Of a stretch of 35,559 nt of DNA, positions 6,759-19,155 are shown piece by piece. The position numbers and the translations under genes are program-made. Source of the DNA: a virus (Duplodnaviria; Caudoviricetes); the IMG/VR virus record IMGVR_UViG_3300005077_000121, positions 1 to 35,559 of that record; one strand, 5' to 3'. Below the pieces are notes generated by a model, which was not told where the DNA came from, did no database searches, and saw only the letters and a list, made by a program, of their open reading frames with translations. Within the stretch, counting starts at the first letter, position 1, and each line of letters starts with the position of its first letter.

Positions 6759-9700
6759 TCAAACAAAACCGAAGAACGGTTTTTCCGCAAATGTGAGATA
6801 GAATGCTTCTGCAAAGTCAGGCGATGTTCCCGTTCTTGCTTTGAGGTCTGGCTTTGGTTCCATCTGTATCTTCCTGTCCGAGATTGTTTTATATTTGAGC
6901 CACGTCAATTGCACCCATTCGTCACGCTTGTCGAGGCGTGTATCATCTTGCATAACCCACTTGCGCGCCTCCCAACAGAGTTCCGCTTTCAGGTTTGCGA
7001 AGTCATCCGGGCTGAAGATTGCCGGCTCCCCAACGTTCACGGCATGTATGGCATACCCCTTTTCCTTGAGACGATCGGATACACCGCGTCCGATACCGAT
7101 ATCGTCAATATTCACATCCTCTGGCAATATGCCGTATTCTGCCATAATCTCCTCTATTTCAGTCACGTTTACCATTGTGTCATTGCTCTTGTTTTGTCTC
7201 ACCACGCTTGCAAATTTGCCCCAACGCACGACAAACACGTTCCAGTCGCCTCCTCCTCCGATGTCTCCACCGAGTTTCGGTCGTATCTTCATGGATCCGC
7301 CGTTTTCCTCCCTGTGCTTCTCGATAAGCGTCTTAAGGAGTTCCGGTGTCATCCCGAATTTTATCTGGTCGGGAAGCACAAGGAGACGATACCCGCGCGC
7401 GTCCATGACGGACATGTCCGGGAAGAGTGATTCGTACAAAATATCGAAGAGCGGTTTATTCCGCGCTTCGTTTATGAATTCCTCCGTATAGCGCCCTTCC
7501 TTCAATGCTCTCTTGTAGTCGATGAATATCCTGTGATATTTCTCCGGCTGGAGCCATGTTTTGAAGAAGTGACTGTTCGGCGGTGCTGAATAGAACGGGT
7601 TTCCGATTTTTATGTATGACGCATTCGGACCCTTTCCGGCAATCATGCGGTACACTGTTGATTCTGAAGTGTCGCCAACGAGACAAAATTCGTCACCGAT
7701 TACTATTTCTGAATTGTGCACCAAGACACCGGATATAAAATAGTTATGATTTCCTTCAACTTCTATATTGTACACGTACCTAGTATGACTATCGTTTATG
7801 AATTCAACATCTCGGAAAAGAACTTCTTCCACATTTCTCTGTTGTGCCCCGTCTTTCCGTGGCAATGTTCGCATAGTGATACCAGATTGTTCATCCGACT
7901 GTTCGATTTGTCGTAATCTATGTGATGTATATGTAATTTTCCACCATTCCCGCAAATTCTGCATCGATTTCCATCTCTCAATTTTACTTCCTTTTTCAAT
8001 GTCTTTCTGAATTCCGGAGGATATGGCAATGTTCCTATTCCTCCCCTCCAAACTAAGCCCAACGCAAGTGCCATTCAATGCATCCGCACGAATCCACCCA
8101 CTACCAAAAACAAAGATTGGGTGATCATCAGTACATGAAAAAGAACGTCCGTCTTTCGTGTGTATCTTTACGATTCCTCTTTCCCCTCTTTCGTTCTTTT
8201 GCCATGCAAGTACTTTTTTATACTCTATTTTTTTTGTTTGTTCATTGTATGTTGCAACGCGTGTATCGATCTTTTTTTCTACAAATTCACCTATCGAAAT
8301 TTCTCCATATTCTGTCATCAATTTCTCTCCATAAAGAAAACATCCTTGGCCCATCGCCGCCTCGAGTGACTTCTTACTGTTTCGTTCGTCTGTGGATATG
8401 ACGAATATGCCTCCACCATTATTGAGCATGATCCGCTCTTTGTTTTCTTCCATACGAAGCTTCTCGAGGCGACTGTTTTTTTCTAGTTTCGTATAAAAAA
8501 GCGGGCTATCAGAAAGATGCTCAATGTAATATCGCATGATAATTTTCGCTTTGTCTGAAGATGGCGCAACGATGACGACAACCTTGCCGAATATACATGT
8601 CAGGATGAGCGCAGCGAGCGCAACCCACAATGAATTATGCGTCGGAATCATCTTTTTTCCAACGAGGTATATACCACCCTCTACCTGTATACAGTTACCT
8701 TGCACAGGGGATATTTCGCGTATCGATTTTACACATATTCCACGCTTACGTTCGAGTTTTGTTATTTTCTTGCGTGGCAAACGAGTAGGAATATCTATAT
8801 AGGGCGCAAAACCGACATAGTACGTCGTCTTCCTTCCCTTTATACCACTGTTGGATTCTGAGGGTTCCACAGCAGTCACAGATGTTCTCACACCAAGTGT
8901 ATGCAACAGTGTACACACGTCATCAACTAATCTCTTGTTTGTATTTATAAAATACACCCTTCCATTGCGCCACCCATTTTCTCTGTCTTTTTTATTTACA
9001 CTACCATCAGTATCTATCAATCCTGCGAGTAATTCTTTTCTTTGTTCGACACTTGCATGCAAATACATTTCAGGGATGTGTTTATTTCCAAGCAAAGACA
9101 ATTTATCCAATGCATTCAAAAAATCTGTTTTATAAAATGCGTGTGATGCGACCCCTGTTTGTTTGTGTATATGGGTTGTGCTTTTTTTATATGGAATAGA
9201 ATCAAGAATTATGTCATCTTTTGGATTTATGGTTATGACCGGTTTCGATGAGACACCGTCACCTAGCCACACACCAAGTGTATACGGATCCAAAGGCAAC
9301 ACGACATTCTCTCCCTTTATTGGTGAAGTAATCGGAAGAGTAAAATCAGAATAGTTTTTATATTGCTCTATTTTTTTTGTTTCGTATGTCCGGTATCCTT
9401 TAGTTCCTCTTTTGTGAAGTACCCACTCGTGATTTTCATGAACCTTTACGCGCTCTCCGTTCGTAAACTCGATTTCACGATTCGCAAAACCTTTTGGCAT
9501 TATTGCCTCAACACGAACAGCATCTCCTTTTTCGTTGAAAACAAAATCACCAACACGCAAATCACCATGTCGTTTCCACCCTAAAGTTGTCCATACAGGT
9601 TCATCGTCGGCAATCAGCTTACCATATTGGGTACTACAGATGATTTCGACGCGATTATGTTTCCGCAACACAATAGCCCCAAATATATGGAGTTGTCCAT

Positions 9701-9785
9701 ACGTCACCTTCTCGTCTCCACGTGCTCCGTCAACCTTGAAGAGCGCTGTTAGCCCCAACAAGTATTTCCGCTCCTTCTTCGTCAT
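6759..9785 (-). CDS. terL: Terminase large subunit precursor with two inteins (about 470 aa after splicing if the start is 9785)
   Basis: Splicing restores Walker A STQYGK|S and GQG|SEIVIGDE (Walker B). RNase H-like nuclease motifs LGGDIGGGGD, IDDIGIG, SPDFAEA. Lies between TerS and portal. Start uncertain (9785-9905). Confidence 0.93.
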   Translation of the reverse strand: MTKKERKYLLGLTALFKVDGARGDEKVTYGQLHIFGAIVLRKHNRVEIICSTQYGKLIADDEPVWTTLGWKRHGDLRVGDFVFNEKGDAVRVEAIMPKGFANREIEFTNGERVKVHENHEWVLHKRGTKGYRTYETKKIEQYKNYSDFTLPITSPIKGENVVLPLDPYTLGVWLGDGVSSKPVITINPKDDIILDSIPYKKSTTHIHKQTGVASHAFYKTDFLNALDKLSLLGNKHIPEMYLHASVEQRKELLAGLIDTDGSVNKKDRENGWRNGRVYFINTNKRLVDDVCTLLHTLGVRTSVTAVEPSESNSGIKGRKTTYYVGFAPYIDIPTRLPRKKITKLERKRGICVKSIREISPVQGNCIQVEGGIYLVGKKMIPTHNSLWVALAALILTCIFGKVVVIVAPSSDKAKIIMRYYIEHLSDSPLFYTKLEKNSRLEKLRMEENKERIMLNNGGGIFVISTDERNSKKSLEAAMGQGCFLYGEKLMTEYGEISIGEFVEKKIDTRVATYNEQTKKIEYKKVLAWQKNERGERGIVKIHTKDGRSFSCTDDHPIFVFGSGWIRADALNGTCVGLSLEGRNRNIAISSGIQKDIEKGSKIERWKSMQNLREWWKITYTSHRLRQIEQSDEQSGITMRTLPRKDGAQQRNVEEVLFRDVEFINDSHTRYVYNIEVEGNHNYFISGVLVHNSEIVIGDEFCLVGDTSESTVYRMIAGKGPNASYIKIGNPFYSAPPNSHFFKTWLQPEKYHRIFIDYKRALKEGRYTEEFINEARNKPLFDILYESLFPDMSVMDARGYRLLVLPDQIKFGMTPELLKTLIEKHREENGGSMKIRPKLGGDIGGGGDWNVFVVRWGKFASVVRQNKSNDTMVNVTEIEEIMAEYGILPEDVNIDDIGIGRGVSDRLKEKGYAIHAVNVGEPAIFSPDDFANLKAELCWEARKWVMQDDTRLDKRDEWVQLTWLKYKTISDRKIQMEPKPDLKARTGTSPDFAEAFYLTFAEKPFFGFV
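7713..8342 (-). mobile_element. TerL intein 2 (class 1, 210 aa) with no in-frame endonuclease
   Basis: Starts CFLYGEKL, block B CTDDHPIF, ends YVYNIEVEGNHNYFISGVLVHN|S; inserted just before Walker B. Confidence 0.93.
7796..8074 (-). CDS. HNH endonuclease nested in the +1 frame of intein 2
   Basis: 92 aa: WRGG..PYPPEF..LKKEVKLRDGNRCRICG..LHIHHIDYDKSNSRMNNLVSLCEHCHGKT. Has both CxxC zinc pairs and the H-N-H residues. Confidence 0.88.
   Translation of the reverse strand: MALALGLVWRGGIGTLPYPPEFRKTLKKEVKLRDGNRCRICGNGGKLHIHHIDYDKSNSRMNNLVSLCEHCHGKTGHNREMWKKFFSEMLNS
8634..9617 (-). mobile_element. TerL intein 1 (class 3, 328 aa) with LAGLIDADG homing endonuclease
   Basis: Inserted in the P-loop GK|S; begins LIADDEPVWT (no C/S at position 1). 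WCT triplet: HENHEW, GNCIQV, IPTHN. Endonuclease motifs YTLGVWLGDG and LLAGLIDTDG. Visibly more AT-rich than the exteins. Confidence 0.92.
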
Positions 9786-10470
9786 TTTCGGAAGAGGAGG
9801 ACACATGTTGATGCCCGTTCTCTCCGGCATGAGCATCTCCGAGTTTATCGTTGCCAGTGTGTTCTTGTGTGTGTTCGTCTTCGTCATAGTATTCGTCATC
9901 GTCATCTTTTATTTCTACACCAACGACCGCTTCATGCAATCTGCGTATGTCATCGGTCACCTTGTCGTACAGCTCGCGCCCATTCGCCCCTGTCATCTCT
10001 ACTCTTGGATTATACCCCTCGTCTTTTCGTTTTAGGCGAAGGTATGTGAGTGCGGCTTCTCCGCTCTCGACTTGTGTCGCAAACTTCTTTTTTGCGATAA
10101 GTCCGAGGTTTTGCCTACATCTATATTTTATTGTGTAAAGTTCAGGGTGCAATTCTTGGAAGTATTTGAGCTGTTCTGACGAAATCCCTGCATAAAAACA
10201 TGCCTCGTCGTCGTTTGCATCGATTTTCCATGCGTCAATAAGCTTTTGCAACTTTACTTTTCCTGTTTCACCGCCCCACCAGCCATTCTCTGTCGCCAGA
10301 ACGTCAAATTCGCCCACCTGTGGCTCTCTAAATCTATACGAGAACGATATTCCCGTTGACTTCGTTATTCGTCTATTCTCCGCCTTTGGTGCGCTCCTAC
10401 GCCCCTTTACACGCCTGTTTCCTGGGCGTGTCTCTATCTTCTCTATCGTTGTATCGTTTGTCTCCTTCAT
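9730..10470 (-). CDS. terS: Probable terminase small subunit
   Basis: HTH-like EACFYAGIS, then YLRLKRKDEGYNPRVEMTGANG and an acidic tail; directly upstream of and overlapping terL. Confidence 0.75.
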   Translation of the reverse strand: MKETNDTTIEKIETRPGNRRVKGRRSAPKAENRRITKSTGISFSYRFREPQVGEFDVLATENGWWGGETGKVKLQKLIDAWKIDANDDEACFYAGISSEQLKYFQELHPELYTIKYRCRQNLGLIAKKKFATQVESGEAALTYLRLKRKDEGYNPRVEMTGANGRELYDKVTDDIRRLHEAVVGVEIKDDDDEYYDEDEHTQEHTGNDKLGDAHAGENGHQHVSSSSENDEEGAEILVGANSALQG

Positions 10471-10611: not shown

Positions 10612-11350
10612 CTACGATTCCAACGAAGAGATATCATCATCGCCGGATTCGCTCTCCCTCTCCACAGGAGGTACAAAGTTTTCAGAAACATGCCACGTAT
10701 CTACATTGCCATTCTTTTGGACAGGAACCTTACCGGCAGTATAGTCTACGAACCTTTGCACAATCACGTCGGCAAAGGTCGGGTCGAATTCCACGCCGTA
10801 GTATGTTCGTTCCGTTTTCTCCGCCGCGATGAGGGTCGAGCCTGAGCCACTGAATGGATCCAGCACGATGTCGCCAGCCTTGGAGCTGTTCACGATTGCG
10901 TAGGTAATAAGCTCTACCGGCTTTTGCGTCGGATGCACGTACTCGGAGACCTTGTCGCGCTTCATCGTCCACACCGTTGCGAGTCCCATCACTTCGAGCC
11001 GTTAGGGAGAGGTCTTTGAGTTCCGCTACTACCAAGTCCATATCCCAGTCGGATTCTGCAAGTTTATTGTCAGCGAGGCGGTATGCCTTGATTGCTTCCT
11101 CGGAGAGGTGCTCTGCTCGAATGCACGGCATAGCTTCCAGTTCCAGCTCCATTGCGGCCATGTGCCTTCCGTGGCCGGCGATGAGTTCTCCGTCTTGCGT
11201 AATCACACCCGGCACCAGAAAGCCGAACGCATTTATACTCTCGGCGATCGCTTGCACCTGTTTCTTTGGGTGCTTCTTGGCGTTTTTCTCGTAGTGTTTT
11301 ATGTCCGAGAGCTTCACCATTTCTATTTTGATTTCAGTTTGGATTTGCAT
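10612..11350 (-). pseudogene. ParB-like N-terminal domain plus N4/N6 DNA methyltransferase, internally deleted and frameshifted near 10995
   Basis: One frame gives YEKNAKKHP..IAGHGR..YRLADNKL; another gives HPTQKPVEL..VLDPFSGSGSTLIAAEKTER. No DPPY-type catalytic segment lies between them. Confidence 0.75.
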
Positions 11351-11357
11351 ATACGAT

Positions 11358-11543
11358 TTATTTCTTACCCTCTGTCGCCGCCCAGATAAGAGAGGCGAAC
11401 CATCCGACGAGTGTCCATCCCGTGACAAGGTTGAGGATTGCTATCGCTCCGGTATTCTTTCTGTCCTTCATCATTGCAACAGATGTCGGGAACATGTACA
11501 TCAGCGTACACACGGCCAACAATACTCCAAATACCTTTTTCAT
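11358..11543 (-). CDS. imm: Superinfection immunity protein (T4 Imm family)
   Basis: YMFPTSVA..RKNTGAIAILNLVTGWTLVGWFASLIWA. Confidence 0.88.
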   Translation of the reverse strand: MKKVFGVLLAVCTLMYMFPTSVAMMKDRKNTGAIAILNLVTGWTLVGWFASLIWAATEGKK

Positions 11544-12238: not shown

Positions 12239-13884
12239 AATGGCTTTGGCTCGCTTTTATAGCGGCTGATTGATCCGTCAGGCATAACTTCGACGGTCTG
12301 CCCGTTTTCGTACACAACACGGTTTGCTCCATGCTTTTTGAACATTCTTTTCAGGAACTCGTCTCGCGTACGAAACTCCTTGTAATGTGCATCCCTCTCG
12401 ACGGGAGGATGACCTATGACAACGTCCGGCGTATACAGTATCTTCCAGTGCGACACCTTCATCCTGAGATAGAAATCCGTATGCTCTGTCACTTTCAGAG
12501 CAGGGTCCCAGAGCATTGTATTGAACAGTTCCCTCCGCATGAGCGCAAAATTCAGCACGCATCCCGTTTTTCTGTATGTGACACCCATGTGTGTTTTCCA
12601 TATCTTTTTTTCAGTTCTGTGGTATATGGTTCCTTGTATAACCTCGGGAGTGAACTCGAAATGCACATCATGTCCGAGTTGCTCGACGCGTCCTCCCACT
12701 ATGCCTATATTTCTGTCAGTTTCGAAGAGCGACACCATCTTCCCGATATCCGTCCCGGGTCCGAATTCCATGTCATCATCGAGTATAAGTTTATATTTAT
12801 TCGGTGTCGTGGTAACAAGATGATTGCGCGCATACGAGAGTCCGCAATCGTACGGAAGCCGTTCTATGGATACACGTTTTACAAGTCCGGCATCATACAA
12901 TTCTCCGCGTAATGTTTTGTAGAATTCACGGTCGAATTCCTTGCTCTGGTCGGCTACGTATACGTTTGCGTGCGGGTAATATCTTGCTATCGACAAAAGC
13001 AATCTCCTCACCGCCTGCGGTCGCTCGAATGTCGTGATGCAAAAATCTACATATTTTACATCGTTTTTCTTCTTCACCGATACATGGTTCGGAGCATAGT
13101 CCTTCGTGCCATGCATATCGATTACATAATCGAGATTATGGCGCGTGAAGAATCTCTCTTTATCGGTTCTCCTCATGCGATATGCGGCATATGTCGGCGC
13201 AATGTCTGATTTCTCGACAATGTTTCGAATGTGTGCCGGCTTATGTATCACGATTGGATCGGGAGAGAAGTATACGTTGCGGTTTGCTTCTTGCAGATCT
13301 ATGAACCAGCTCTCATGCTCATATGCGACCTTTATCTCTTCGTCCCACGGTATATCCTTTATTTTGTCAACGCGCGCAACGAAGAAATTGAACGTCAGAT
13401 CTGTTTTTATAAACCGCAGTCCGGATTGCCTGTCATATTGGTAATCGGCAGTCTCGAGATTTATAGGATGGGTTATGATATGTCTCGGAAAGCGTTCAAT
13501 CTTTCCTTGGTAATTTCTCACAACTCCATCCTGTATGACGCGCCCGCCAATGAGGTCTATTTCAGGATGTCCAGAGATGAGAGCAACCATCTTGTCGACT
13601 CCTGTGGTTTCTTCAAAGAAGAAGTCATCGTCTCCGACGAGGACATATTCTGTTTCGACATGTTGCATGAGCGTGTTGCGGCCGATACAAACACCTGAAT
13701 CGAACGGCAACTCGATATACCTTGCTTGATGCGTTCGACACACCTGCGCTAACTCGTTGTTATATTCTCCGTTCTCTCCGACAATGATTTGAATGTCGGG
13801 ATATGTTTTTTTGAGCGACTCGATACACGCGATGGTATACGCGGGTCGTAAAAAACTAATGATGATGGCAGTCACGTCGTTCAT
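12235..13884 (-). CDS. Tandem two-domain GT2 (GT-A) glycosyltransferase
   Basis: Two repeats of T/SFxRP...LP(F/Y)DxG..RN.L....T.Y.L..DDD...EHxxF/W. Confidence 0.88.
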   Translation of the reverse strand: MNDVTAIIISFLRPAYTIACIESLKKTYPDIQIIVGENGEYNNELAQVCRTHQARYIELPFDSGVCIGRNTLMQHVETEYVLVGDDDFFFEETTGVDKMVALISGHPEIDLIGGRVIQDGVVRNYQGKIERFPRHIITHPINLETADYQYDRQSGLRFIKTDLTFNFFVARVDKIKDIPWDEEIKVAYEHESWFIDLQEANRNVYFSPDPIVIHKPAHIRNIVEKSDIAPTYAAYRMRRTDKERFFTRHNLDYVIDMHGTKDYAPNHVSVKKKNDVKYVDFCITTFERPQAVRRLLLSIARYYPHANVYVADQSKEFDREFYKTLRGELYDAGLVKRVSIERLPYDCGLSYARNHLVTTTPNKYKLILDDDMEFGPGTDIGKMVSLFETDRNIGIVGGRVEQLGHDVHFEFTPEVIQGTIYHRTEKKIWKTHMGVTYRKTGCVLNFALMRRELFNTMLWDPALKVTEHTDFYLRMKVSHWKILYTPDVVIGHPPVERDAHYKEFRTRDEFLKRMFKKHGANRVVYENGQTVEVMPDGSISRYKSEPKPL

Positions 13885-14330
13885 ATCTCGCGTGGATTAT
13901 CGCTTCGTAATTCGTTCCGAATCATCGTCGTCGACACACCGTTTGTGTACGGAATGAACACAATTTCAACACCTTTTTCCTCTATCACTTTTCGTCCCGG
14001 GAAGTCTTTCCAGTCGTCCCCGCGTACGTATACAATTTCGCTCGGAAGAATACCTTTTAGAACAAGGTCGTCGATATGTAATCCTACTCTATACCCGGGA
14101 TCTTCTTCCCAGACAATAATGACTTCATCCGCAAGACGCGATTGGAACAAATTGTCCCATCGATGGTCTTCTTTCTGTACAGGAAATCTTCCTTTGTTGT
14201 GGAATGTGCTCAAATCGTTATGGATGAACACTTTGACATCTTCAGCCATTTCACGCATGTTTTTGAGTAGATTGACATGCCCTTCGTGAAGGCAGTCGAA
14301 TACTCCTACTGTGATTGCTACTTTTTTCAT
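13881..14330 (-). CDS. TagD-like (glycerol-3-phosphate-type) cytidylyltransferase
   Basis: GVFDCLHEGHVNLL, YVRGDDWK, PYTNGVSTTMIR. Confidence 0.88.
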   Translation of the reverse strand: MKKVAITVGVFDCLHEGHVNLLKNMREMAEDVKVFIHNDLSTFHNKGRFPVQKEDHRWDNLFQSRLADEVIIVWEEDPGYRVGLHIDDLVLKGILPSEIVYVRGDDWKDFPGRKVIEEKGVEIVFIPYTNGVSTTMIRNELRSDNPREI

Positions 14331-14343
14331 ATGTTTCGTGAAA

Positions 14344-14907
14344 TTATGATAATGTTTTGCGTATATTACGCGGTCCATATGCCCAATCCCAATCCTTTAC
14401 AGGATCAATCCATCCGGCACCATATTTCAATTCGAGAACAGCTTTGGGATTCGATGGCGCAGGATAGAGTTCGTTTTGGAACATCATCGGGGATATGTTC
14501 TCTATAAGTTCAGCGGGGTATTCGTAGGTAATCACATCATCATTCATATTGCGTCCTCCGTTTTCGAATGCATGGAAGATTCGAAAATCTCCATCCTTTC
14601 GGTAGAAAAACAAATCGATTTTTATACCATTTCGGTGGTATGAAATCTCGAAGTGATTTTCCCAGTCTCCGAATTGATGTTTGATGACAATGTCTTTTTT
14701 TAAGAAAAGATGAGTGAGTTCGAACACATGCACCGGCGTCCATTCCTCGAACAAAACACCAACATCTATGTCGGTGTCGTGTGCTATGAAATCACCGTCT
14801 CTCACAGCACCGAGAAGCGTTCCATCGATGATGAAATGTGTTTTACCCATACCGACAAGCACTTCGTGCACGTTGTGAAGTATGTTCGATGCATGTGTGT
14901 GATTCAT
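14344..14907 (-). CDS. LicD/fukutin-family phosphotransferase
   Basis: DGTLLGAVRDGDFIAHDTDIDVG, KIDLFFY, APSNPKAVLELKYGAGW. Confidence 0.88.
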   Translation of the reverse strand: MNHTHASNILHNVHEVLVGMGKTHFIIDGTLLGAVRDGDFIAHDTDIDVGVLFEEWTPVHVFELTHLFLKKDIVIKHQFGDWENHFEISYHRNGIKIDLFFYRKDGDFRIFHAFENGGRNMNDDVITYEYPAELIENISPMMFQNELYPAPSNPKAVLELKYGAGWIDPVKDWDWAYGPRNIRKTLS

Positions 14908-17004: not shown

Positions 17005-19155
17005 CTATTTCGAGATAAGACCTTGGAGGCGTGTTTTTCCTCCGCGGATCATTGGTCCGATAAGTATCATGTCTCCCTTTCCGGAGAGCTTCTCGGCTCC
17101 GGGTTCTCCCAAGATTACTATGCTGTCGACAGGGCTCGCCGTGCGGAATGCTATTCTTGTGGGGAAGTTTGCTTTGATGAGTCCGGTGATGACCTCAACA
17201 CGCGGGTTCTGGGTCGCAATGATGAGGTGTATGCCGGCGGCTCTCCCAAGTTGCGCGATACGCGCTACGAGGTGTTCAACATCGGCTTCAGGTGACATGA
17301 GGATATCTTTTGCATCAAGTGCCTCGAGCATTTCGACAAGTTCATTCTTGTAGGCATCGTCCATATATGGTACGTGTTCTCCCAATTCCATCGCCTTTGT
17401 CGCAATTGCCTTTTTGAGCCATGGTGCACTTCTCGTTTTATATCCTTTTCCTCTTTTTTCCTCCGTCCGGCTTCGCAGTATAAGGTCTGCAAATTCGTCG
17501 ATGACGCACACTTCATACGAGAGTTCGTTCTTTTTTTCGCGTTTACTTTCGTTATATTCGCGAATATCGCTCTTTCCTACCTTTTCGAGTAGTTTGTACC
17601 TCCTCTCCATTTCGTCCGTTAAGGTCAGGAGTGCCCGTACTGCGTCTCTTGGATCGTGAATGACCTTCCCGTCGCCGAGATGCGCTTTCTTTGCGTAGCG
17701 TGCCAATTCTACCCGTTTCGGGTCTATGAGTGTGAGATGCATGGTATCCGGGCGCATTTGTGCGATGAGTGCGTCAAGCGTTGTTTTTATCGCGACGCTT
17801 TTGCCGGATCCTGTCGCGCCTGCTATGAGGAGGTGCGGCATGTCAGTGAGATCTATCGTCATTATCTCACCGTCTACATCTACACCTATCGGTATACGCA
17901 TCGTCTCGGTATCGAGATGCTCTTTTTTCAGCTTTGCAGTCGTGCGCTCGACATTCTCGACCTCGACACCGAAGTATTCAGTGCCGGGGATTGGGGTCAG
18001 GATACGCACCTCTCCTTTCGTTGCCAGCGTACGGATGATATCATCACGATGTTTTTGCACTGTGCTCATGCGTACTCCGGCGCTCACTTTGAATCGATAC
18101 TGTGTTACCTGCGCTCCGGTTATTGTTTCGACAGGTTCGATAGGCACACCGAATTCTGCGAGGCGCATCTTTATCCTTTCTTCCGGGGGGAGATATTTGT
18201 TCTCGACACGGTCGAGGTTCGAGGCGACGAATTTCTTACTGACGAATGCCATGTCCTTTACCTTGTGCATCACCTCTACGTCGCTCATATCAGCACTGAT
18301 GAGACCTTGCGCGTACATCATGCCGGCGTGTTCTCCATCGTACATATCCGATAGGTTCGGAAGGAATATCGGGTCATTTTGCAGGTAGCGTACAACGTCT
18401 TTGTAGAGATTATAGAACATAACGAAGTACGGACGGTGGTCGTATGGAACGGCCCAATCGCGTATCTGAGGGCCGCCGTCTTTGTTGCCTGTTCTTTTTA
18501 CCTCGCGGAAAAGCATTCGTTTTGGTGCTTCCCCAAACTCCTCTTTCACGAGGTGGTACATGAATTGGCTCTGTACGATTTTCAAATAATCCTCCGTTTC
18601 ATAGTCGGTAAACGATTTGACGAATTTCGTATCTATGATTTCGATGTCTCCGTTTGCGTTTCTTACGACAAGGTCCGGGCGTCCCGTTCCCGGGAGCGGT
18701 AGTAAATCACCGTCTATGGTGTGCATTTCTGCATTGAGTTTCTTTTCGCAGAATATCACCTCGTGATAGTTCGGTTCCTCTTTCCAGTAGAAGTCCATGG
18801 CCTGCGCGTACCCTTTCAGCATTTCCTCTCTCGATCCTGTTTTTCCGTAGTCGATGAAGTCATCGCTATGTTCGTCGAGGTATTTCAGACCATGGGCCAT
18901 TGCCTCAGCGCGCGCCTCTATGGGGTCTGCGCTTACGGAGATGTCCGGTTCTCCTCCGTAGTAGAGTTGCAATGCTTTATGACAAGCACTTCCTATCATG
19001 GATCCGACACCCCGCTTGCTGTCGTATACACCGAGGATTTCTTTCAGTTTGAAAATCATCGGATTACGGAGTATCTGTATCATCGAACTATAGCTCAACC
19101 TATCGACCGGAAGCATCTTTTCCGTACTCTTTCTCGTAGAGTCCGTCGTGGTCAT
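17005..19155 (-). CDS. PD-(D/E)XK (RecB/Cas4-like) exonuclease fused to an FtsK/SpoIIIE motor domain
   Basis: N-terminus LSYSS..GSACHKALQ..GRPDLV..EIIDTKF..QSQFMY; C-terminus FtsK alpha domain, PHLLIAGATGSGKS, LIDPKRVEL, VIDEFADL, GRAAGIHLIIATQ, GAEKLSGKGDM. Start is 19155 or 19116. Confidence 0.9.
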   Translation of the reverse strand: MTTTDSTRKSTEKMLPVDRLSYSSMIQILRNPMIFKLKEILGVYDSKRGVGSMIGSACHKALQLYYGGEPDISVSADPIEARAEAMAHGLKYLDEHSDDFIDYGKTGSREEMLKGYAQAMDFYWKEEPNYHEVIFCEKKLNAEMHTIDGDLLPLPGTGRPDLVVRNANGDIEIIDTKFVKSFTDYETEDYLKIVQSQFMYHLVKEEFGEAPKRMLFREVKRTGNKDGGPQIRDWAVPYDHRPYFVMFYNLYKDVVRYLQNDPIFLPNLSDMYDGEHAGMMYAQGLISADMSDVEVMHKVKDMAFVSKKFVASNLDRVENKYLPPEERIKMRLAEFGVPIEPVETITGAQVTQYRFKVSAGVRMSTVQKHRDDIIRTLATKGEVRILTPIPGTEYFGVEVENVERTTAKLKKEHLDTETMRIPIGVDVDGEIMTIDLTDMPHLLIAGATGSGKSVAIKTTLDALIAQMRPDTMHLTLIDPKRVELARYAKKAHLGDGKVIHDPRDAVRALLTLTDEMERRYKLLEKVGKSDIREYNESKREKKNELSYEVCVIDEFADLILRSRTEEKRGKGYKTRSAPWLKKAIATKAMELGEHVPYMDDAYKNELVEMLEALDAKDILMSPEADVEHLVARIAQLGRAAGIHLIIATQNPRVEVITGLIKANFPTRIAFRTASPVDSIVILGEPGAEKLSGKGDMILIGPMIRGGKTRLQGLISK

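Follow-up and report, generated by a model that had tools for sequence, protein, structure and literature searches.

Intein 2 of the terminase gene terL in virus record IMGVR_UViG_3300005077_000121 is a real, selected dual-coding intein, in which the splicing domain is read in the TerL frame and a zinc-ribbon HNH core is read in the +1 frame of the same strand. We propose, with a probability of about 0.55, that the nested homing nuclease is eroding toward a mini-intein and that this shortened copy is a weakened relic.

Intein 2 and the reading frame nested within it

The window analysed in this study is the full 35,559 nt of the record, which is linear and 98% complete, and a profile search of the window proteins also recognised portal, protease, capsid and tail genes. 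The TerL precursor (6759..9905, minus strand; 1048 aa, from ORF calling and profiles) contains two inteins. Intein 1 (8634..9617, minus strand; TerL aa 97-424), considered here as context, carries an in-frame LAGLIDADG domain; its first residue is Leu rather than Cys or Ser, block B is followed by Trp, block F contains a Cys and the His-Asn is preceded by Thr, a pattern that is presumably that of class 3 inteins. Intein 2 (7713..8342, minus strand; 210 aa, TerL aa 522-731) is inserted at GQG|SEIVIGDE, immediately ahead of an acidic pair that we take to be the likely Walker B of TerL.

Class 1 inteins are defined by an N-terminal Cys or Ser, a TxxH in block B, a C-terminal His-Asn and a Cys, Ser or Thr at +1. 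The initial annotation of this DNA described the splicing motifs of intein 2 as intact, and this was borne out by the presence of C1, T71-D-D-H74 and H209-N210 followed by Ser at +1, together with a Pfam Intein_splicing match at E 1e-17. In the structural model a Hint fold is formed from both ends (aa 1-100 and 171-210, pLDDT 90-98). The N-terminal splicing region, with C1 and T71-x-x-H74, covers intein aa 1-98 (8049..8342, minus strand; pLDDT 90-98), the C-terminal one, with H209, N210 and then Ser, covers aa 171-210 (7713..7832, minus strand; pLDDT 94-96), and comparison of the model with intein structures by Foldseek gave E 6e-9. Intein 2 is a class 1 intein with a predicted Hint fold, and it likely splices normally, to judge from its motifs and from the fact that terminase is essential to the phage. 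The TerL frame is open over all 1048 codons, hence the intein halves are not on separate ORFs and intein 2 is not a split intein. Between the splicing regions lies an in-frame linker (intein aa 101-170; 7833..8042, minus strand) modelled at low confidence (pLDDT 44-59). Pfam profiles found no endonuclease domain in the reading frame of intein 2, in keeping with the earlier remark that its middle section resembles no recognisable domain, and the linker is a by-product of the +1 gene.

That gene, an ORF of 92 aa with a zinc-ribbon HNH core (7796..8074, minus strand), lies one base off the TerL frame, and a TGA directly precedes its ATG at 8074. The HMM check proposed for 7796-8074 gave a Pfam PF01844 (HNH) score of 23.7 bits against a cut-off of 21.4, and the PHROGs HNH profile matched at E 2e-13. 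The active-site and zinc residues are C38, C41, H50, H51, N63, C68, C71 and H72, including two CxxC pairs. The model is confident over aa 21-80 (pLDDT ~90), and its fold matches are HNH proteins (McrA, IscB and Cap5), all at E above 0.001. The ORF had been said to fill the endonuclease slot of the intein, and it does lie there; however, it is not placed cleanly between the splicing halves, because in the model each of its ends runs into the splicing domain, by about 9 codons at the start of the HNH ORF (intein aa 90-98) and 12 at its end (171-183).

The description of this product as a complete HNH nuclease holds for the catalytic core, which retains each of the 7 invariant and 8 near-invariant columns and whose leave-one-out score ranks 13 of 50. 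However, just 8 residues stand before the WxGG motif, and relatives have 70-180 more codons upstream, thus the nested ORF is complete only as a catalytic core. The N-terminal DNA-binding modules that form an accessory feature of HNH homing endonucleases are absent, the N-P part of the N-P-x-W motif is gone, and residue 76 is Gly, compared with His in 30/49 and Asn in 16/49 of the aligned relatives. A His or Asn four residues past the helix His is the likely second metal ligand; position 76 is Ile or Ser in 2/15 free-standing relatives. On two features, Gly76 and the missing N-terminal modules, the predicted protein falls short of a full HNH homing endonuclease.

Elsewhere in the window, also on the minus strand, a ParB-methyltransferase fusion gene (phrog_498; 10612-11428) extends across two overlapping frames, with profile positions 20-157 in one ORF, 342-443 in another and about 185 positions absent, which looks like a deletion with frameshift. 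The gene at 17005-19155, which adjoins a RecT-like gene, encodes 716 aa that combine an FtsK/SpoIIIE-like domain with an N-terminal part resembling exonucleases, and the gene at 13881-14378 encodes a nucleotidyltransferase resembling heptose-1-phosphate adenylyltransferase.

Dual coding, chance and assembly error

Both frames stay open for 279 nt, as first noted. When the HNH protein was kept fixed and its codons were drawn synonymously under three codon tables, 6-7 stops were expected in the intein frame and the probability of that frame being open was 7e-5 to 4e-4. At the stop-risk positions, which precede AA-, AG- and GA- codons, T occurs at 0/24, compared with 17/48 elsewhere (p 3.5e-4). 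Among 18 viral HNH relatives from the protein search, 17 apparently free-standing and 1 an in-frame intein, the corresponding frame contains 1-19 stops.

The layout could also arise if an ordinary in-frame HNH intein had been assembled with two compensating indel errors, and the intein is indeed not covered by reads: two 151-nt read contigs align to the exteins only, one of them ending, with 4 letters hidden, at 8343, the intein boundary. In the read search one run shared 7% of the sequence words, and no RNA run was listed. However, the off frame of in-frame HNH inteins is stop-rich (median 12 stops, with zero stops in 1/54), and paired indel errors would therefore leave stops, of which there are none here (P at most 4e-4). 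In addition, 34 distinct and independent nested loci occur among the matches listed in our family scan, and cultured phages have the same layout. The double open frame is neither chance nor a paired indel error, which upholds the original view that the nuclease truly lies in the other frame, and we regard an assembly artefact as hardly credible.

Amino-acid conservation across relatives, as read from pairwise alignments, follows the +1 HNH frame. Between the nested HNH and its nearest relative, L120, identity is 63% in the HNH frame and 36% in the intein frame, with substitutions of 0.28/0.27/0.52 at HNH codon positions 1/2/3. Across 34 nested pairs mean identity is 62% in the HNH frame, a figure inflated by the choice of pairs with at least 55% HNH identity, and 29% in the intein frame, with substitutions of 0.34/0.25/0.59.

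Shortening, homing targets and translation of the nested ORF

With 210 aa, intein 2 is shorter than the inteins of 20 distinct nested relatives (268-389 aa). The difference from the G002 and G001 inteins is one gap of 137-142 codons that preserves both frames, and the putative deletion junction (8049..8078, minus strand) contains ATG 8074. The missing stretch corresponds to the N-terminal CxxC zinc-ribbon modules of relatives, which are predicted to bind DNA, and the distance from block B to HHID is 68 codons here, compared with 138-250 in relatives (block B could be placed in 22 of 26 long-flank loci, which gave these values). Two proteins, P0002 and P0066, are even shorter, with part of the HNH core missing, and two short inteins, P0155 and P0162, carry no HNH trace; this copy, P0002/P0066 and P0155/P0162 may be read as a deletion series. 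Searches of viral contigs, metagenome contigs and proteins returned no close relative of intein 2 (the best protein matches reach 30-52% over parts) and no close relative with the same deletion.

On the erosion reading, ribosomes translating TerL would make the precursor, and the Hint domain would excise itself together with the disordered linker; the TerL frame must remain stop-free because terminase is essential. In full-length members of the family, an internal start 6-38 codons past block B would give a nuclease of 170-310 aa, with zinc-ribbon or other DNA-binding modules, which would nick or cut empty terL alleles and thereby drive homing. In this copy, with the modules deleted, translation of the remaining core could begin at ATG 8074, and its product would be at most a weak nickase of relaxed specificity. 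There is also evidence against decay: the core shows no general degeneration, the deletion ends at a domain boundary and an ATG heads the core.

These last features are also those expected of a streamlined active element, in which the 92-aa core from ATG 8074 is a minimal homing nickase acting on a short site near the insertion point. The catalytic residues H50, H51, N63 and H72 and the four zinc cysteines are intact, the score of the core ranks 13 of 50, the deletion cuts cleanly between domains, and 8 codons separate the ATG from the conserved Trp downstream, G001 and G002 having Met there as well. A precedent for so small an enzyme is N.phiGamma, whose 76-aa HNH core retains nicking activity without a zinc ribbon, though weaker and less specific, according to the available portion of PMC3592412. 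On the other hand, this reading has to accommodate Gly76, the lost N-P and a folded start region, and no second example of this length was found in 22 measured loci or 64 measured proteins.

An active nickase is helped by the existence of intein-free terL alleles. The terL searches gave 18 metagenome and 6 viral loci, from which one with an unrelated intein and one that was unparsed were left out; in the 22 parsed loci without intein 2 the exteins are joined directly at G-x-G|, indicating precise insertion, and the presence of the intein is patchy among loci. However, the expected natural empty allele GQG|SEIV was not typical of these sites: across 17 distinct empty sites the +1 residue is Ala in 15, Cys in 1 and Ser in 1, and all four closest empty alleles (66-85% identity, best segment) have Ala. 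Ala is unable to serve as the +1 nucleophile. Viable targets therefore look scarce, and homing into Ala alleles would need co-conversion of the +1 codon. As to a co-converted tract that might have brought in the Ser at +1, third-position G+C over the first 20 C-extein codons is 2 and 4 of 10, compared with 9 and 10 in L151, and equally low blocks occur upstream. In all, we regard a working nickase as possible, though the less likely of the two, and retain erosion toward a mini-intein as our preferred reading.

A start codon is present 6-38 codons after block B in 24/24 relatives' loci examined, and in the split relatives L143, L063 and L055 the stop codon of the N-intein overlaps the HNH start or lies upstream of it, which suggests separate, internal initiation in the family; such initiation would be the likeliest route for HNH translation. 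ATG 8074 may descend from an internal Met of the ancestor, or may have arisen by chance as a codon of a Hint strand. Its anti-SD pairing is weak (-3.3 kcal/mol), and since only 3/21 other starts in the window reach -5 kcal/mol or better, a weak site looks normal in this phage. Most of the 21 gene starts lie in unfolded, A/T-rich sequence with no Shine-Dalgarno match, perhaps a reflection of how the host initiates translation. The 40-nt region round ATG 8074 folds at -8.1 kcal/mol, compared with -0.2 to -6.6 kcal/mol at 19 main starts. A regulatory hairpin over this ATG was considered and rejected (z -0.52 against shuffled sequences), no consistent folding was found at the starts of relatives, and no sigma-70-type promoter was found on the coding strand. 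The initial annotation had named TTG 8029 as one possible start and pointed to its GGAGG, which pairs at -10.1 kcal/mol, and this candidate did not survive comparison with relatives: the GGAGG is encoded by W-R-G-G codons that are internal in G001, G002 and other full-length relatives, the TTG is not conserved, and a start there drops the WxGG motif. For the start comparison the HNH part alone was used, the DNA alignment misplacing the N-terminal half.

The weak site at ATG 8074 might also be taken as a sign of +1 ribosomal frameshifting, by which the HNH would be fused to the N-extein and the N-terminal splicing region, and all 47 real out-of-frame matches listed are +1, none +2. However, the +1-frame TGA before the ATG limits any shift to 8078 or later, where the TerL frame offers no stop for stalling; relatives have start codons of their own past block B; the HNH is in the -1 frame relative to the N-intein in L055 and L063; and weak sites, as noted above, are normal here. 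We consider frameshifting quite improbable.

HNH proteins associated with terminase in DNA packaging are encoded by free-standing genes near terL regardless of any intein. Domestication as such a packaging helper would suit the size and zinc-ribbon core of the nested protein, which resemble those of small phage HNH proteins (5h0m, E 3.5e-7), and the nested ORF is the sole A2-family HNH in the 98% complete record; the idea was raised for Brucella phages in the available portion of PMC4422536. However, the HNH is nested here, two 92% complete relatives with intein-free terL have no A2-type HNH in one case and an HNH about 17 kb away in the other, and the same nested layout also occurs in polymerase-like hosts (labelled as such from motifs). 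A packaging role thus appears very unlikely to us.

The nested family and known out-of-frame intein nucleases

IMG/VR was scanned with a frame-blind pattern consisting of an HNH motif, a gap of 145-175 nt and an intein end, and at least 120 loci were obtained from 33/64 IMG/VR parts, with ~230 estimated overall. Among the at least 120 pattern matches listed, 61 are in-frame, 37 are nested +1 (34 distinct) and 10 are split with a +1 HNH; there is no true +2 HNH among them, 12 chance matches having been dropped by eye. Nested +1 forms make up 37/98 of the contiguous HNH-intein matches listed, a share of the sample rather than a census, because the pattern demands a particular first codon and spacing. 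The host frame was traced from the extein in 22 of the nested loci, 3 were partly checked in their records and 12 were available with 300-nt flanks only. An in-frame trace of the +1 HNH was detected in 66/186 stored proteins, above the reversed-sequence control. The frame kept open in nested loci is the stop-richer one (median 12 vs 7 stops), so the restriction to +1 is not explained by ease; possible causes are that the family descends from one ancestor or that the HNH 3' end supplies the start of the C-intein.

Contiguous and split forms meet at the terL site itself. At the same G-x-G| site, the 347-aa intein of G002 is contiguous and contains a full nested HNH, and that of G003 is split, the stop of its N-half overlapping the HNH start; the contiguous intein of G001 lies five residues further along. 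In a 36-row tree, built from a short alignment with a midpoint root and with a median G+C of 0.49 in nested and 0.27 in split forms, this copy falls together with G001 and G002 in a clade that also includes three split forms, a second nested clade lies among split forms, and the contiguous and split states are interleaved. In 9/10 distinct split relatives an intein-frame Met is found 34-66 codons before the intein end. L021, L024, L033, L055, L063, L069, L102, L123, L133 and L139 are apparent natural terminase split inteins in which the 3' end of the HNH gene contains the start of the C-half, and they are candidates for new trans-splicing pairs. Long in-frame linkers were also seen in P0004, P0005, P0012 and P0018, inteins of helicase or terminase hosts, and by eye these are possibly the trace of a different, Vsr-like out-of-frame nuclease.

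A bolder statement would hold jointly that the 92 aa encoded here work as a minimal homing nickase, smaller than any other nested intein nuclease in these searches, and that the family is one +1-locked design, accounting for more than 1/3 of sampled phage HNH inteins, whose members have changed again and again between contiguous, mini and naturally split forms, this terminase site included. We put this forward tentatively and think it rather doubtful as a whole; if true, the +1-locked HNH family would be a main source of mini-inteins as well as of natural split inteins.

The design, which the initial annotation had taken to be a distinct one, is not new: an HNH read out of frame within an intein of terL has already been published, and the layout is common in phages. 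In the Brucella phages all annotated genomes have, within terL, an HNH gene that the intein encodes in a different frame, as stated in the available portion of a 2015 report (PMC4422536), and in GenBank JN939332.1 (Brucella phage Tb/Pr, Perisivirus) both genes are annotated, as ORF07 and ORF08, at an offset of +1 (3170 vs 2347). The present locus shares with this element the terL host, the contiguous intein, the same strand and the +1 frame, and the two HNH proteins are homologous (37% over aa 8-72, E 8e-6). However, the annotated Brucella phage HNH, of 228 aa, has CxxC modules in its N-terminal part and a His at +4, compared with a 92-aa core and Gly here, and the sequence flanking the insertion is C-V-I-I-D-D there and S-E-I-V-I-G-D-E here. 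Standard annotation was said to overlook such nucleases, and this can be seen in Ralstonia phage RS-CA1 (PP316169.1, L169:270-2756), which is annotated as terminase only and whose intein has an unannotated +1 zinc-ribbon HNH ORF. A literature search covering few subscription journals returned neither a census of +1 HNH inteins nor a test of translation or cleavage by a nested +1 HNH.

In the portion available, an actinophage preprint describes same-strand out-of-frame EndoVII-like as well as antisense intein nucleases, predicts decay to mini- and split inteins and calls these layouts rare (bioRxiv 10.1101/2025.01.02.630785). As in those inteins, a same-strand nuclease ORF in another frame occupies the endonuclease slot here and the in-frame product is unstructured; theirs is an EndoVII-like enzyme in frame 3, and ours a zinc-ribbon HNH in +1. 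A contiguous in-frame splicing domain with an other-frame nuclease ORF in its endonuclease slot places intein 2 with the Brucella phage or Gosselin type. Against the term rare, nested +1 forms are 37/98 of the contiguous matches listed, and many inteins labelled mini or degraded may therefore hide a nuclease. The cyanobacterial DnaX intein likewise has overlapping frames and a low-confidence in-frame linker, with purifying selection in the nuclease frame and coexisting mini alleles, but it encodes a LAGLIDADG enzyme in a bacterial chromosomal gene (bioRxiv 10.64898/2026.09.14.751524, portion available). The ShiLan domain is similar in that its stop-free insertion hides a zinc-finger HNH read out of frame, but it is without a splicing domain and located in a methylase, as far as the accessible text of PMC11855218 goes.

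Dassa et al. (PMC2677866, accessible part) described fractured genes, in which split inteins have an intervening endonuclease of GIY-YIG or Vsr-like type, and proposed a model in which the C-intein start is supplied by the 3' end of the endonuclease gene. Ten distinct relatives share this form, one of them (G003) at the same terL site, whereas intein 2 is contiguous. The locus studied here adds one shortened example to a published design, and the wider comparison carries more weight: this shortened copy, the full nested form in G002 and the split form in G003, all at one terL site, make up a natural series for endonuclease loss and the origin of split inteins.
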